Program-made: the position numbers and the translations under genes
Source of the DNA: Candidatus Wukongarchaeum yapensis
Lineage (GTDB): Archaea; Asgardarchaeota; Wukongarchaeia; Wukongarchaeales; Wukongarchaeaceae
Assembly: GCA_016840425.1 (NCBI GenBank)
Contig: JAEOSI010000044.1
Location: 1-12,369, forward strand
Direction: 5' to 3'
DNA: 12,369 nucleotides
Part shown: positions 3,129-12,082 of the stretch, piece after piece
How positions within the stretch are numbered: position 1 is the stretch's first letter
Layout of the letters: every line of letters begins with the position of its first letter
Notes under the pieces: generated by a model
Databases searched by the model: none
The model's input: the letters and a program-made list of their open reading frames with translations, nothing else
Told to the model about the DNA's origin: nothing

Positions 3129-6100
3129 TTAAGTTTTTATCGCTATTTTAATGGTTTTATCTTCGATTTTCCAGTTTTTTGTGTATGTTGTTTCAGCTGG
3201 TATCCCTACTTGTACACTGGTTGAGAGGGTTTCGTTGGCGACATATTTTTCATGTTTTTTCATGGAGTTTAGGAGTTCTTGGTCTTCTGTTTCATAGAAG
3301 AGGCTTATGGTTTGGGTGTATTCTAGGTCTAATTCTTTCCGCATTACTTGTACCCTTCTTATAAATTCTAGCATTAATCCTTCTTCTCTGAGTTCTGGGG
3401 TCATTTCTGTGTTAAGAATCATTAGCAGACTTCCTATTAAAGAGGCGACATATGGTGGTTTTTCTTTCTTTTCTGTATTCAAGTCTCCTCGTGTAAGTTC
3501 TACTTCTTCCCCGTCTATTTTCAGTTTAGCGCTTCCTTTTTCCTCTATTCTTCTTAGTAGCTCTAGAGAGTCTTGCTGCTGTAAAGTCTTACTTATTTTA
3601 GGTATTTTTTCTTTATATTTTGGTCCTAAGCGTTCATAATTTGGTTTTAAGATTATTTGACAATAGTTTTTATGTTCTTTAGGATCGATATATTTGACCT
3701 TTTTTACGTTTATTTCTTCAAGTAATAGCAATTCAAAAGGTTTTATTCTCGAAGCTTGTTTCTCTGTACACCCTATTATAAGCTCTTTTAACGGTTGTCG
3801 TGTCTTTATTTTTTTACTGGCACGCAGAGATCTTCCCGAGCTATTTACACCGATCACCAACTTCATACTTTCCTCAAGATCTTTATCGATATACTCTTCA
3901 ACAGAAGTCGGATAATCTGTCATATGTACGCTCAAAGGAGCTGTCTCTTCAATATGCCTAACAAGGTTTTGATACATGTCTTCAGTGATAAAGGAGGCGA
4001 AAGGTGCAAGAAGCTTTATTAAAGTAACTAAAACTTCATAAAGAGTCCAGAAAGCTGAAAGTTTATCCTCAGTAACCTCTGACTTCCAAAATCTTCGCCT
4101 AGATCTCCGAACATACCAATTACTCAGTTCATCCACAACAAATTCATCAAGATATCTTGCAGCTTTGTGAACATCGTAGGCATTAAGACCGCTTGTAACA
4201 TCTTTTATAAGAGTGTTTGCACTTGAGATGATCCAGCGGTCAAGAACGTCCCTTTTCTCTACAGGTAAGTATTGATTTTCCCTTGCTTTTACAGGGTTAA
4301 AGTTGTCTACATTAGCGTTTAAGACGAAGAAATGATACACGTTCCACAACGTTAAAAGGAACCGTTTTAAGGCGTCTTCTGAAGCTTTTAAATAGAAACG
4401 CTTATCCAGCCAAGGCGCGTTGGAAGCGAAAAGATACCACCGCATAGCGTCCGCTCCTGTGTTGTTTAAAATAATCCAAGGATCAACGATATTGCCCTTG
4501 CTTTTGCTCATCTTAACCCCTTTTTCATCAGTTACGAGGCCGAGGGTTAAAACGGATGTATAAGCAGGCTTGTTAAAAACTAAAGTACCTATCGCTAATA
4601 GTGTGTAGAACCATCCCCTAGTTTGATCCACTGCCTCCGTTATAAAACTTGCAGGAAACTGGCTTTCAAAAAGCTCCTTGTTCTCAAAGGGATAATGGTG
4701 TTGAGCAAAAGGAGCAGAACCACTATCATACCAACAATCAACGAGATAATTCTCTCTTATCATATCTCCTCCGCATTTTTTACAATCAAGAATTACCTCA
4801 TCTATCCACGGTTTGTGAAGCTCAAGATGGCCTGGAAGCTTTTTCGCTAAACTTTTAAGCTCTGATACACTTCCCAAACAAGTTCTTTCACCGCATTTTT
4901 CACACGTCCATATAGGCAAAGGTGTCCCCCAATACCTCTCCCTTGAAAGGGCCCAATCCCTTAAATTTTCTAAGAAGTTACCAAACCTCCCATGCTTGTA
5001 ATATTCTGGAAACCATTCTACCTGCCCATTGTTGTCGGTTAATTCTTCTTTTATTTTACTCATTTTCAAAAACCATGTCTCCCTCGCGATGTAAAGCAGG
5101 GGAGTGTCACACCTCCAACAAAAAGGATAATCGTGTTTATAAGTCCCGCTTTTGTAGAGGAGGTTTCTTTCTTCAAGCATCTCTATTATTTTCTTGTCCG
5201 CATCTTTTACGTACATGTCCGCAAAAGGTTCTACTTCTCCCACAAAGTTGCCTTTTTCATCCACAAGCTGAAGTAAAGGCAGGTCGTACTCTTGAGCTAG
5301 TTCATAATCTTCAGGACCGAAAGCTGGGGCCGTATGCACTATCCCTGTACCCTCTTCTAAGTCGACAAAATCGGCAAGGCATACGTAGTGGGCACGTTTT
5401 TCTAGCTTTTTAAAGGTGAAGAGGGGCTCATAACTCTTTCCTTCTAAATCTGCACCATAAAGTCTCTGAACAACTTTGTGTTCCCCTTCTATTACTCGGT
5501 CTACTAAAGCGCCAGCAAGTATGTATCGCTCTCCATTTGTTTCAACAACGGCATATAAGAAATCAGGATGTACTGCTAAAGCGACGTTACTTATAAGAGT
5601 CCAAGGCGTCGTTGTCCACGCCAAAAAATAAGTATTTTCTTCTCCCTCGACTTTGAACTTTATAAAGATGCTTGGATCCTCAGTTTCAGCACTACCCAAA
5701 GCAACCTCATGACTACTCAGAGAGGTTCCACATCGGGTACACCAAGGCACCACATAGTGACTCTTTACAAGCAATCCCTTATTCCATGACTGTTTCAAGC
5801 TCCACCAAACACTTTCTATATAATCATCATCCATCGTTATATACGGACCACCATGATAGCCGCTATCATCCCTCTCCATATCAAGCCAAAAACCAACTCT
5901 TTCCGTGGTCTTTTTCCATTCACTCTCATAACGAAGAACGCTTTCCCTACATTTCTCATTAAATTTCTCGATCCCGTACGCTTCTATATCCTTCTTAGTT
6001 TTTAGATTGAGCTCCTTTTCTACCTCAAGCTCAACGGGCAATCCATGACAGTCCCAGCCCCCTTTTCGTGGTACATAGTAGCCTTGCATTGTTTTAAAAC

Positions 6101-7895: not shown

Positions 7896-9155
7896 TCAAT
7901 GATAGAAATCTCGAGGATCAGTTATTCTCCCAGTTATAGCCGATGCAGCTGCAGTAGCTGGCGACGAGAGGTATATGTAAGCTTTTTCATTGCCCATCCT
8001 CCCCTTAAAGTTCCTGTTTTGCGTCGAAAGACAAACCTCGCCGTCTCCAAGAATGCCCAAATGCCGTCCGATGCAAGGACCACACCCAGGGGGATTTATG
8101 CTCGCTCCTGCCTCGATAAGGGTTGCAGCGATTCCCCGCTCTATAATTTTTAGGTAAACACGCCATGATGCCGGCTGTACAAGTAGCCTTGTATCGTTTG
8201 CCACTTTTTTACCTTTAAGTATCTTTGCTACTATCTCAAAATCTTCAAATCTTCCATTAGTACAGGTTCCAATAAAAACTTGGTCTACATCGAGTTCCCC
8301 AACTTCGCTTACCGCTTTAACGTTATCTACTGTATGCGGTAACGCGATCATCGGCTCCAATTCTGCCGCGTTTATCGCTATTTCTTTGGAGAAATAAGCA
8401 TCTTGATCGGGTTTTAAATTTTTAAAGAATCCTTTTCTTCTGTGTTCTGCCAAAAATTTAATAGTTTTTCCGTCTACAGGGCATAAACCAGTTTTCCCCC
8501 CAGCTTCAACTGCCATGTTTGAAAGTGTCAACCTTTCACTTATCCCCATACTATTAACAGTCTCGCCGAAGAATTCCATAGCCATATAAGTAGCTCCATC
8601 CGCCCCTATAACCCCAATAATTTTAAGTATAACGTCTTTTGCAGAAACAGGAGATTTCAGTTCTCCTTCCACCAAAATTTTAAAGGATTCTGGAACTTTC
8701 AACCATGTTTTTCCAAAGGCCATAGCGCCAGCAATATCTGTGGAGCCCATACCGGTAGCAAAAGCACCTAAAGCCCCATGAGTACAAGTGTGACTGTCCG
8801 CTCCTAAAACAACAGTCCAAGGCTTTACAAACTCTTCAATGAGCAACTGATGACCTATCCCCCTACCTACTCCTCGAAAATTACACCCATTTTCCCTGCA
8901 GTAATTTCTAAGAAAAGCGTGTATGTTACTAATCTTCTCGCTGGGACTTGGAGTAGTATGATCTGTTACAATAACCACTTTATTCGGATCAAAGAAGGTG
9001 TCTACTCCCATCTTTTTCATCTCTTCGAATGCCAAAGGAGCCGTGCCATCATGGGCAAAAACCGTTTCCACATCTACAATAATGATATCCCCAGCTTCAA
9101 CATCCTTTTTCGCTACATGAGACAGAATCTTCTCAGCCATAGTTTTTCCTGCCAT
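7896..9155 (-). CDS. leuC: 3-isopropylmalate dehydratase/homoaconitase family, large [4Fe-4S] subunit
   Basis: KTMAEKIL, AHDGT, GADSHTCTHGALGAFATGMGSTD, cluster ligands GTCTNGR and GCGPCIG, STQNRNFKGRMG. ATG 9155 is 7 nt after GGTG (the ORF track uses TTG 9158). Substrate unresolved. Confidence 0.95.
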   Translation of the reverse strand: MAGKTMAEKILSHVAKKDVEAGDIIIVDVETVFAHDGTAPLAFEEMKKMGVDTFFDPNKVVIVTDHTTPSPSEKISNIHAFLRNYCRENGCNFRGVGRGIGHQLLIEEFVKPWTVVLGADSHTCTHGALGAFATGMGSTDIAGAMAFGKTWLKVPESFKILVEGELKSPVSAKDVILKIIGVIGADGATYMAMEFFGETVNSMGISERLTLSNMAVEAGGKTGLCPVDGKTIKFLAEHRRKGFFKNLKPDQDAYFSKEIAINAAELEPMIALPHTVDNVKAVSEVGELDVDQVFIGTCTNGRFEDFEIVAKILKGKKVANDTRLLVQPASWRVYLKIIERGIAATLIEAGASINPPGCGPCIGRHLGILGDGEVCLSTQNRNFKGRMGNEKAYIYLSSPATAAASAITGRITDPRDFYH

Positions 9156-9344
9156 CAAGAAACACCACTCTTAAACCACAAAAAACCACTAAAAAAAGCA
9201 TATTAAACAAAAATGAAATATTTTTTGCGCTAATAACGATTTAAAAGATGCAAGAGATAAAACACATGTGCTTATTTTAATCTTACTCTTTGGAATAATC
9301 AAAAGCCCAAACTCTGAGCTTAAATCATCAAAAAATAGCTTAAT

Positions 9345-9807: not shown

Positions 9808-9935
9808 TAAGATATTGTCCATACGGAGTGAACTACTCCCAGCTTTTGCAGGGAGCTTCCTGTTTCAACGACAGGCTCATCATCATTCATCCATCTCCAC
9901 AGGCGTAAATTCGGACAGTCCCTGTCCTACTCTTC
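9808..9935 (-). ncRNA. Putative TnpB omega/reRNA: ~107-nt scaffold plus a guide taken from flanking DNA
   Basis: Scaffold hairpins GGACAG-GGA-CUGUCC, CCUGU-(7)-ACAGG and the right-end hairpin. TnpB guides are known to be the ~16-20 nt beyond the right end: here UCCGUAUGGACAAUAUCUUA (9827-9808). Expression is inferred. Confidence 0.6.
9883..9930 (-). pseudogene. tnpB: C-terminal remnant of tnpB (VGQGLSEFTPVEMDE*)
   Basis: The translation matches the characteristic TnpB tail that overlaps the omegaRNA. An in-frame TAA lies 5 codons upstream and there is no start codon. Confidence 0.7.
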
Positions 9936-9954
9936 TATATTGTTATTCTTATGA

Positions 9955-9970
9955 CTATAAATAGTTTATT
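9955..9970 (-). promoter_or_regulatory. BRE/TATA inside the mini-element, positioned to transcribe the omegaRNA
   Basis: - strand AATAAACT-ATTTATAG predicts a start at ~9932-9936, a few nt before the first scaffold hairpin. Confidence 0.45.
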
Positions 9971-10232
9971 ATTATCGTTCGGCTTTCATCCCCCAGCTTT
10001 CCGGTCTACCCGCGTGTTAACTGTTTTTTTATTTTTTTAGACGGTTGTTTTTGGAAAAAATTGAAATGAGTGGAGACGTTCCTCATAAAAGCCTACGCCA
10101 AGCACAGAAACCTCATTAGAATAGAAACGAACCAAGCCCTCCTCCTCCGCTTGCTAACACGGACAATAGACCACAAAGACAAACCACCACGCTGAGAAAT
10201 CCTCGAAAAAACTTACTTCATAAAGAGGCGAT

Positions 10233-11450
10233 CTATTTAATCAAGCAATCATCTAACATGCGCGTAGACTGTTTCGCAAGGGGACTTCTCGCCGAAGAAG
10301 TTAAATCACGCAATTGGTTCTGAATACTTTCTAACTTCGGGTCCGCCTCTTCGCCTAGTTTTTTTCGTATCCCGTAAAGTTCCTGAAAAATTGGGATAAC
10401 TTCCTTTTCAGAGTTTAAGTCAAGCAATATGGTCGTTTCGATAAGATAAACAAGATCCACAAAAGCCTTGGAAGATTCTTGCGGTAATGGTTCTGATAAA
10501 ATTCGTCTTATGGAGGATTTCTGCTCTCTCTCTAACCATTCCTCTTCCTGTTTGAAGAATATTTCCAGTTCTTCAAGATCTTCTGAAGAAATAAACCATC
10601 CGCTTCCTCCAACATTTTCTTCGAGATGGGCAACGGTTGATGGTCCTGTAAGCGTGCAAATTATTTCTGCTTGGGATAAAACCCAAGCAATAGCCGTCTA
10701 TACCGGCGTCTTTCCATAACTTCTCCCCACTTTTGCCAGCTTTTCCCCTACCCTAAGGCTGGACTGAAAACTCTCGCGCTGAAACAAGGGATCTAAATTT
10801 CGGATATCTCCAGGTTCAAACTTTTTTCCTTTCTGAAACCTTCCTGTAAGTAATCCCCGTCCCGTAGCACTAAAACCTATTGAAGCCATACCGTATTTCT
10901 CACACGATGGCAGAAGTTTTTCCCGTGAGCTACGAGCAACCGCGCTAAGTTCCATCAGAACCGAAAAAACATCACCAATTTTACAATAAATCTCTATTCT
11001 CTCCTTGGAAAGATGTCCCGCCCCATAACGCCGTATCTTTCCTTCGCTCACAAGCTCTTCAAGCGCACCAATAGTCTCTTCTACAGGCGTGTTCGGATCA
11101 TCAAAATGCAATTGATACAGATCAATATAGTCCGTCTGTAACCTCTCAAGACTTTTCTCACATGCAGATTTTACATACTTGGTTGAAAGATTAGGCTTAA
11201 CATCTCCTGTCATTCCCATCTTTGTAGCGATATAAAAATCATGACGATAAGGCTTAACAACTTCACCGAGAATCTGCTCAGCATCCCCGTAAACATCAGC
11301 AGTATCAAAAAAGTTAACACCCAACTCATAAGCACGGTTAAGCATCCGCATAAACTCTTTTACATCCTTCCCCCCGTATACACCACTTAAAGCATAACAA
11401 CCCACACCAACTTCAGATACATTAAAGTCATTATGCTTTCGATATTTCAT
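10233..11450 (-). pseudogene. Aldo/keto reductase with a ~90-aa C-terminal helical extension, interrupted by one in-frame TAG (nonsense allele or readthrough gene)
   Basis: Catalytic tetrad motifs FFDTADVY, IATK and YQLH. The track ORFs 10698-11480 and 10233-10460 are the same frame: GKTPV-TAG-TAIAWVLSQAEIICTLTGPSTVAHLEENVGGSGW...AFVDLVYLIETT...LIK*. ATG 11450 has GAGGAG 7 nt upstream; GTG 11480 overlapping the upstream stop is the alternative start. Confidence 0.88.
10668..10689 (-). other. Perfect 8-bp RNA hairpin 8 nt downstream of the internal amber codon
   Basis: UAG-ACGGCUAU-UGCUUGGG-UUUUAU-CCCAAGCA. Confidence 0.7.
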
Positions 11451-11479
11451 CCCCAGTCTCCTCTTTGATAACCAACTCA

Positions 11480-12082
11480 CTATTTTTCAACATATTTCTT
11501 AACCACTTCAAGAACTTGCTCTATATTTTTCCAAGAATAAACATCGTTTTTATATTCAGGATGTTTTCTTAACATTTTAATTAAAGAGGAGGCTGCTGCT
11601 CTCCAAACAAACTTTTTTTTATCTTTAGCGAGAATTTTTAGCAATTTCAAAGATTCTTCGGGAAAAGATAAACCAAACCTAACACCCAAACACATAGCCA
11701 CGTTCCATCGAACATTAACATCATCGATTTTCATCCATTTTTTTAGTTGCTTAAACGTTAAATCAGGATCTTTACTACAAACAGCACTTAAAGCAAAAGG
11801 ACCACAATTTTTTCGAACATAATTATCACTATCATATAAGAGAGGTTCAAGGAGATCTAATACTTCTTTTACATATTTTTTGTTTATTCTTAGCAATCCT
11901 ACTTCAACAGCTCTTCTTATATTCGGTTCTGGATCTCTCACCCATTCTTTCCAAACTGGATAATATTCTTCAAAATGTTTACCGTTAATTTTTTTTATTT
12001 CACTGGCAGCATCTTCTCTTACTTTCCAGTCCTCGTCGTTTGCAAGTTTCCTGATCTTTTCAAGCAGCTTTTTATCTACCAT
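11480..12082 (-). CDS. HEAT-repeat protein (possibly DNA alkylation repair AlkD-like family)
   Basis: Repeated D-x-x-x-x-VR units (DEDWKVR, DPEPNIRR, DSDNYVR, DDVNVRW, DKKKFVWR). ATG 12082 is probably leaderless (the track start is TTG 12091). Ends in tandem stops TAG TGA. Confidence 0.8.
   Translation of the reverse strand: MVDKKLLEKIRKLANDEDWKVREDAASEIKKINGKHFEEYYPVWKEWVRDPEPNIRRAVEVGLLRINKKYVKEVLDLLEPLLYDSDNYVRKNCGPFALSAVCSKDPDLTFKQLKKWMKIDDVNVRWNVAMCLGVRFGLSFPEESLKLLKILAKDKKKFVWRAAASSLIKMLRKHPEYKNDVYSWKNIEQVLEVVKKYVEK

Follow-up and report, generated by a model that had tools for sequence, protein, structure and literature searches.

A probable non-autonomous IS200/IS605-type element with an omegaRNA scaffold and a split left end in a Hodarchaeota-type Asgard genome

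We analyzed a window of 12,369 nucleotides from a Hodarchaeota-type Asgard genome (G000; 2.16 Mb in 277 contigs, 38% G+C, 92% complete), which carries about 10 copies of the element family described here. On its minus strand, the window holds an aldo/keto-reductase-like ORF (11480..10233), an element of 473 bp (10300..9828) and, starting 105 nt past the right end of this element, a 125-aa ORF (9722-9345). The limits of the element were read from the only other genome of the genus (G001, a sister species, whose sequences are identical to the Candidatus Hodarchaeota archaeon DZ1B.339 records), where the orthologous locus, at 90-93% identity, has window positions 9827 and 10301 adjacent and lacks all 473 bp as a single block. 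On the minus strand this empty site reads ...GTGATTTAA|TCCATATGGACAATATCTTATAA (also written ...GTGATTTAA|TCCATATGGACAATATC... and ...GTGATTTAA|TCCATATGG). The element thus lies directly 3′ of TTTAA with zero target duplication (TTTAA|TCCATATGG in the sister genome), which is a hallmark of IS200/IS605 transposition. An earlier note on this DNA had taken in just 174 of the 473 bp, together with 20 nt of flank, and had considered the TAM unreadable; with the full span in hand, the TAM reads TTTAA. Its view of the locus as a protein-less IS200/IS605 derivative with flanking DNA in the guide position agrees with the empty site and with the coding content, as the element contains no credible ORF (longest 49 aa) and TnpB queries matched C-terminal remnants only. 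The features of the locus are collected in Table 1.

Table 1. Parts of the element and of the adjoining host DNA, in window coordinates
Feature	Position	Strand	Basis
TTTAA target site / TAM, host DNA immediately 5′ of the element	10301..10305	-	Empty site in the sister genome; alignment of copies
Outer left end: 17-nt linker CTTCTTCGGCGAGAAGT, outer arm CCCCTTGC (10283-10276), copy of the GAAA loop (10275-10272)	10272..10300	-	Similarity to short copies
270-bp non-coding insert in the left-end hairpin loop	10002..10271	-	Comparison with short copies and with C175
Second GAAA (10001-9998) and inner arm GCTGGGGG (9997-9990)	9990..10001	-	Alignment with short copies
A/T-rich spacer with archaeal TATA-like box TTTATA (9961-9956)	9929..9989	-	Conserved in both subfamilies
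omegaRNA scaffold, 101 nt	9828..9928	-	Homology to 3′ ends of full-length tnpB elements; consensus fold
Guide position TCCGTATGGACAATATCTTA, host DNA	9808..9827	-	Contiguous with TTTAA in the empty site of the sister genome

The element has subterminal imperfect palindromes at both ends and is itself without terminal inverted repeats. Its right end, ...GGGAGTAGTTCAC, stops at 9828, a boundary set by at least nine further copies and by the empty site, so that the complete right end noted earlier is exact; it terminates in GTAGTTCAC and holds the hairpin CTCCCTGC-AAAA-GCTGGGAG, 8 nt from the cut site. This hairpin is mirrored by the left-end hairpin of the short copies, CCCCTTGC-GAAA-GCTGGGGG, which is imperfect and lies 17 nt from the cut site. 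We conclude that window 10300..9828 is probably a non-autonomous IS200/IS605-type element (PATE/MITE), descended from a tnpB-only transposon whose TnpB is close to that of ISDra2. The term PATE (palindrome-associated transposable element) is reportedly also used in a paper on Haloquadratum walsbyi.

A search of the host genome with window 9808-10010 returned 39 matches, among them eight near-full copies with 86-97% identity (two on C77 and one each on C168, C177, C88, C160, C147 and C201), two copies of a diverged subfamily (C175 and C268) and about 15 that cover the last ~100 nt only. The full copies share a 174-bp core (window 10001..9828), and the short copies have 30 further conserved bases before it (the 17-nt linker, CCCCTTGC, the G of the loop and so on), preceded by TTTAA. 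About eight copies of ~200 bp, with the left end unbroken, sit at other loci, each with a different flank, and the short copies are mutually 93-97% identical. At least nine copies in the host genome and one in the sister genome occupy unrelated loci. TTTAA precedes eight of the ten aligned family copies; those on C201 and C268 follow TTTAA(A)/TTTTA variants. The genome search proposed in the earlier note, for copies, parent, TAM and empty site, yielded all four: about 10 copies, the C59-type parents described below, TTTAA and the empty site in the sister species.

Several further arrangements were seen in the same genome. The copy on C177 is flanked by tnpB fragments. At C160:798-844 and C104:5154-5108 we found 47-nt solo elements, TTTAA|CTTATTCGGCGATAAGTTCCCTTGCGAAAGCTGGGAGTAGTTCAC, in which the left-end linker and outer hairpin arm are joined by one loop to the right-end inner arm and tail; these look like products of recombination between the left-end and right-end hairpins, with all else lost, including the scaffold. 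One of them lies within an unusual stretch of C160, where a ~430-bp inverted duplication with 5 mismatches (~365-797 and 2059-~2490) borders the solo element with one arm and a full mini-element with the other, ~1 kb apart. This duplication is either real or an assembly chimera of two alleles.

Between the left end and the scaffold, all copies in both subfamilies have TTTATA, which in the window copy lies 27 nt ahead of the first scaffold nucleotide (9928), and the TATA box described earlier as abutting the scaffold is confirmed as a motif. The mini-element in the sister genome has its TATA box 25 nt upstream of the scaffold, with a different intervening sequence. In the full-length elements a TTTATAAA box occupies the matching place, after the left-end hairpin and upstream of tnpB, which suggests that TTTATA is probably the old tnpB promoter, a candidate recognized by its motif. 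In bacterial gene-less relatives, the left-end hairpin and a TATATAT motif are joined directly to the same first scaffold base. Judged from these sequences, fusion of a promoter-like box to the scaffold is a recurrent design. The internal deletion took tnpB from just past the promoter region to its last ~33 codons, of which tblastn recovered two blocks, 14 codons at 9930-9889 and 16 at 9872-9825, the segment between them being replaced; 15 codons of the second block lie inside the element and the last is read from the flank. The earlier description of "the last 15 tnpB codons" was accordingly right about a C-terminal remnant and wrong about its shape.

The scaffold overlaps these remnants (at 9930-9889 and 9872-9828): the tnpB 3′ end and the right end together give the scaffold, which ends at the transposon boundary, with the guide position in the flank. 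Its parts are P1 (GGACAG-GGA-CUGUCC), a CCUG/CAGG helix, a long-range GAAUU/AGUUC pairing, a terminal hairpin at 9856-9835, which doubles as the right-end DNA hairpin, and the tail AGTTCAC. When genomes were scanned for exact matches to a 25-nt degenerate core, the scaffold turned up in Hodarchaeota, Micrarchaeota and many genomes of Lachnospiraceae/Clostridia; from the scan hits and the local copies, 47 distinct scaffolds were extracted, 37 of which were aligned. The consensus fold of these 37 sequences comprises P1 (GGRCAG-GGA-CUGYCC), the long-range GAAUU/AGUUC pairing, the CCUG/CAGG helix, a variable middle hairpin and the terminal hairpin, and it bears out the intact stems reported earlier. 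On the consensus structure 97.6% of cells were paired, compared with 23-46% in controls with the partners slid, and nine pairs showed two-sided (compensatory) changes. Two of these pairs belong to P1, for which the window copy has GGACAG/CUGUCC, a compensated form, and GGGUAG/CUACCC is also found in mini-element lineages. The predicted fold is thus supported by covariation across Asgard, Micrarchaeota and Clostridia copies, with the qualification that covariation in the terminal hairpin could reflect recognition of the DNA by TnpA and not an RNA function. Across the whole window, Rfam gave no family at the gathering threshold.

We also noted that Lachnospiraceae/Clostridia, Hodarchaeota and a Micrarchaeota genome have almost the same scaffold core and tail GTAGTTCAC (loci L050-L082), a similarity that suggests the spread of one TnpB/omegaRNA lineage between domains. 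The tnpB frame ends ahead of the scaffold in the bacterial copies but continues through it in the archaeal ones.

A less favorable reading of the scaffold is that the element is inert debris, a decaying deletion derivative with no functional omegaRNA, whose scaffold persists through youth and through the need of TnpA for the right end. The 93-97% identity among short copies indicates that they are young, and no tnpA matching the ends was found. Some sister copies have stem-breaking substitutions in the terminal hairpin; in the middle segment of the window copy itself, two private changes give rise to a competing CCUG, and its subfamily has the middle hairpin replaced by a shorter A/G/U-rich stretch. 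The single-sequence fold is modestly better than that of shuffled sequences (z = -1.9). However, ~35 nt of the right end are enough for TnpA, and still all ~100 nt of the scaffold persist in four or more gene-less lineages that arose independently in two domains. In these derivatives, from archaea and Lachnospiraceae, the scaffold is kept starting with its very first nucleotide, and a TATA-like or -10-like box lies just ahead of it. In addition, the spacing of 25-27 nt from TATA box to scaffold is kept even where the sequence between differs, and the compensatory changes in P1 fall within mini-element lineages. We therefore consider the debris explanation unlikely. Retention of the whole scaffold in independent gene-less derivatives supports the published idea that TnpB is exploited in trans.

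In the host genome, the TnpB TNB domain had 31 hits and OrfB_IS605 had 21. Among these genes, the C59-type family has 3′ ends homologous to the mini-element; its members on C59 and C137 are intact, those on C205, C19 and C134 run off the ends of their contigs, and several further members have decayed. The last 45 nt of the right end on C205 are identical to those of the window copy. The TnpB of C59 contains the Pfam domains HTH_OrfB_IS605, OrfB_IS605 and TNB, and its residues 7-370 align with ISDra2 TnpB (8H1J, 8BF8/8EXA; E 1e-43), with the D/E/D triad kept. The RuvC D/E/D residues are kept in the three most complete TnpBs of this family (C59, C137 and C205). With this alignment and these residues, the C59-type TnpB is likely an active nuclease, as predicted from its sequence, and not a TldR. 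The earlier note had named a cognate tnpB in the genome, beforehand, as a test of its proposal, and the genes on C59 and C137 provide one; the TldR partner that it had also considered does not agree with the intact triads of the three most complete TnpBs. A domesticated guide system of the TldR type was rejected on these triads, on a guide that differs from copy to copy and on the lack of a second target.

Two observations on the tnpB genes stand apart from these. At C205:13841-13925 AAA stands in place of the TAA/TAG stop ahead of the right-end hairpin loop, as it does in the mini-elements, and the tnpB frame consequently reads through the right end into flanking DNA. Full-length tnpBs of the same family at C180:~4790-4960, C34:~9090-9260, C109:~40-225 and C19:~965-1140 share another upstream region, with T-rich tracts and a TTTATATA box, and with neither an IS605-type left-end hairpin nor a TTTAA junction. 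The tnpBs with this type of upstream region may perhaps reside in another kind of carrier element.

The transposase side of the system is sparser. The assembly has one full Y1_Tnp gene, on C70, and one fragment; the C70 tnpA is part of another IS605 family, whose ends differ in sequence, and a tnpA matching the ends described here was not found in the 92%-complete assembly.

The 20 nt in the guide position are the last 7 codons and the stop of the aldo/keto-reductase-like ORF. They had no second match of 11 nt or more in the genome, and in IMG/VR (2.9 million contigs) we found five exact 16-mer matches, none of them after TTTAA, a number that we judged consistent with chance for a collection of this size. 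The only TAM-linked target found was the empty donor site, as the published TnpB retention model predicts, and this argues against a selected, fixed guide; moreover, the guide flank differs at every family copy. The earlier note had proposed such a guide, conserved and targeted, within an immobilized, domesticated cassette serving a TnpB or TldR encoded elsewhere, with the sister mini-elements as a dispersed guide repertoire against host or invader targets. A promoter-like box adjoining an intact scaffold, the interrupted left-end hairpin of the window copy and an assembly without a cognate tnpA all speak for this proposal. Against it, however, the window copy still has its entire left end and its TAM, the sister genome lacks all of the element at its empty site, the guide coincides with the end of a gene in decay in both species, and the three most complete C59-family TnpBs keep their catalytic residues; together with the guide data, this makes the proposal very improbable. 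The locus is a selfish element of an already known type, not a host locus with a fixed guide.

Regarding the host gene, the reductase-like ORF has an in-frame TAG at window 10698-10700 on the minus strand where the sister genome has CAG, and the ortholog in the sister genome has TGA where the window genome has TGG, as well as a frameshift. Either the gene is apparently in decay in each species independently, or these are consensus errors in metagenome-assembled genomes. A further reading of the locus starts from this neighborhood, namely that the main effect of the element is transcription outward from its right end into the same-strand 125-aa ORF, or truncation of the reductase-like gene. The TATA-like box does point to that ORF, and the insertion takes the place of the final 8 codons in the upstream ORF. 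But the 125-aa ORF is preceded by an A/T-rich region of its own, with T-tracts separating it from the element, the interrupted gene already has the lesions just described, and the other copies lie in unrelated contexts. This reading is scarcely credible.

The only unusual feature of the window copy is its split left end. At 10305-10272, a 34-nt stretch that includes TTTAA matches the left end of four short copies at 100% identity and that of both C77 copies at 97%. It is separated from the inner hairpin arm by the 270-bp insert, which has imperfect terminal inverted repeats (~18/22 nt by eye) and GAAA on both flanks; without the insert and one of the two GAAA copies, the window copy can be aligned with the short copies over its whole length. 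This accounts for the half hairpin reported earlier: GCTGGGGG is indeed the inner arm, and the window sequence next to it is not the outer arm. The outer arm had not been replaced by unrelated sequence, however, as arm, linker and TTTAA are intact 270 bp away. Nor do a disabled left end, a lost left junction and an immobilized element stand up, since the left end is complete though split, the 473 bp are absent from the empty site as a whole, and a second composite exists.

This second composite, at C175:~3541-4062, has ~78% identity to the window copy and consists of a left end, a homologous insert at the identical loop position, the core and the right end; it sits after TTTAA in unrelated flanks. 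Apart from C175 and, in part, C121, no homologues of the insert were found. No copies of it were found in 300 Asgard genomes or in the 41 nearest relatives; Rfam gave no match to it, with only chance-level hits (E 0.4 or higher) around the element and insert. The insert contains no ORF of more than 41 aa and no conserved ORF, and tblastn detected no TnpB-coding remnant in it. An approximate search of the genome with its inverted repeats returned C175, C121 and a similar motif on C211, and nothing else. The C211 motif is AAACAGTCTACCCGCGTATGAAATAG, which resembles the left inverted repeat of the insert and is held in a 63-nt tandem duplication at C211:~850-980, the only other place in the genome with a left-repeat motif of this type. 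We also considered the insert as a nested classical MITE with a parent IS in the host genome, and rejected this after no parent was found.

In left end and core, the C175 composite belongs to the C268 subfamily and the window copy (C253) to the main subfamily, and the two inserts have diverged about as much as the cores. With two subfamilies and similar divergence of insert and core, either the same loop position was hit twice independently, or an ancestral composite was mobile and gave rise to the short forms by losing the insert precisely, more than once. The empty site in the sister genome is compatible both with insertion of the composite as one unit and with later arrival of the insert. 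In a centroid fold of the DNA, the inverted repeats of the insert pair and stack on the split hairpin arms. According to this model, the base of the split hairpin could still form in single-stranded DNA, which may explain why the composite is present at two loci. Tentatively, then, the insert would be a passenger of the mini-transposon, its paired repeats rebuilding the hairpin base that TnpA recognizes; alternatively, it would be a mobile element that targets this loop specifically. We regard this account as possible, though rather doubtful. If the passenger reading is true, IS200/IS605 ends can carry cargo inside their recognition hairpin. In the literature searched, we found no description of an insert in the loop of a left-end hairpin, and the split left end poses a small puzzle as to what TnpA tolerates.

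For the non-autonomous element itself, the features described here would fit the following sequence of events. The element would be transcribed from the TATA-like box through the right end into the flank, giving an omegaRNA whose guide would be adjacent host DNA. Loaded in trans with this RNA, TnpB from full-length sister elements would cut the TTTAA-plus-guide empty site left by excision, and recombination would then restore the mini-element. By analogy, the element must presumably rely on both TnpB and TnpA supplied in trans. With no cognate full tnpA found in the 92%-complete assembly, present-day mobility of the element is at most putative. The fixed, targeted guide that had been hoped for is absent and no new question is opened by it. 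The locus does provide a well-bounded archaeal mini-transposon made of a promoter-like box and an omegaRNA scaffold, with TAM, scaffold and candidate cognate TnpBs defined, which should be useful for annotation and for tests of Asgard TnpBs.

Three known systems invite comparison. TldRs are nuclease-dead, TnpB-derived RNA-guided repressors (Wiegand et al., PMC10705468), and the likeness is one of concept, in that a TnpB-type guide RNA would be put to a purpose other than transposon homing. In contrast to TldRs, the TnpBs of C59, C137 and C205 are catalytically intact by their residues, the guide is unconserved, with no target beyond the empty site, and the window locus is not fixed between sister species.

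A second counterpart is ISDra2 TnpB with its omegaRNA (PDB 8H1J, 8BF8/8EXA), a homing/retention nuclease that the parental TnpB resembles in both alignment and triad. The scaffold, as in the ISDra2 omegaRNA, overlaps the tnpB 3′ end and stops at the right-end boundary, where a flank-derived guide follows. Unlike ISDra2, the window element has its nuclease gene deleted, and in the archaeal family the tnpB frame runs to ~16 nt from the right end. The TAM of ISDra2 is TTGAT, whereas that of the window element is TTTAA.

The third comparison is with the PATE-like gene-less IS200/IS605 elements of Geobacillus stearothermophilus (Meers et al. 2023, PMC10055086), the Discussion of which states that PATEs often encode omegaRNAs, necessarily used in trans by the TnpB of other elements. 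PATEs that bear omegaRNAs are thus already published. The window element shares with them the lack of a protein gene, end hairpins of the IS200/IS605 type, a short 5′ target motif without duplication, multiple copies and a retained omegaRNA region. It differs in that its host is a Hodarchaeota-type Asgard archaeon and its promoter-like box is archaeal, and the window copy differs further in carrying, within the loop of its left-end hairpin, a 270-bp insert that ends in inverted repeats.
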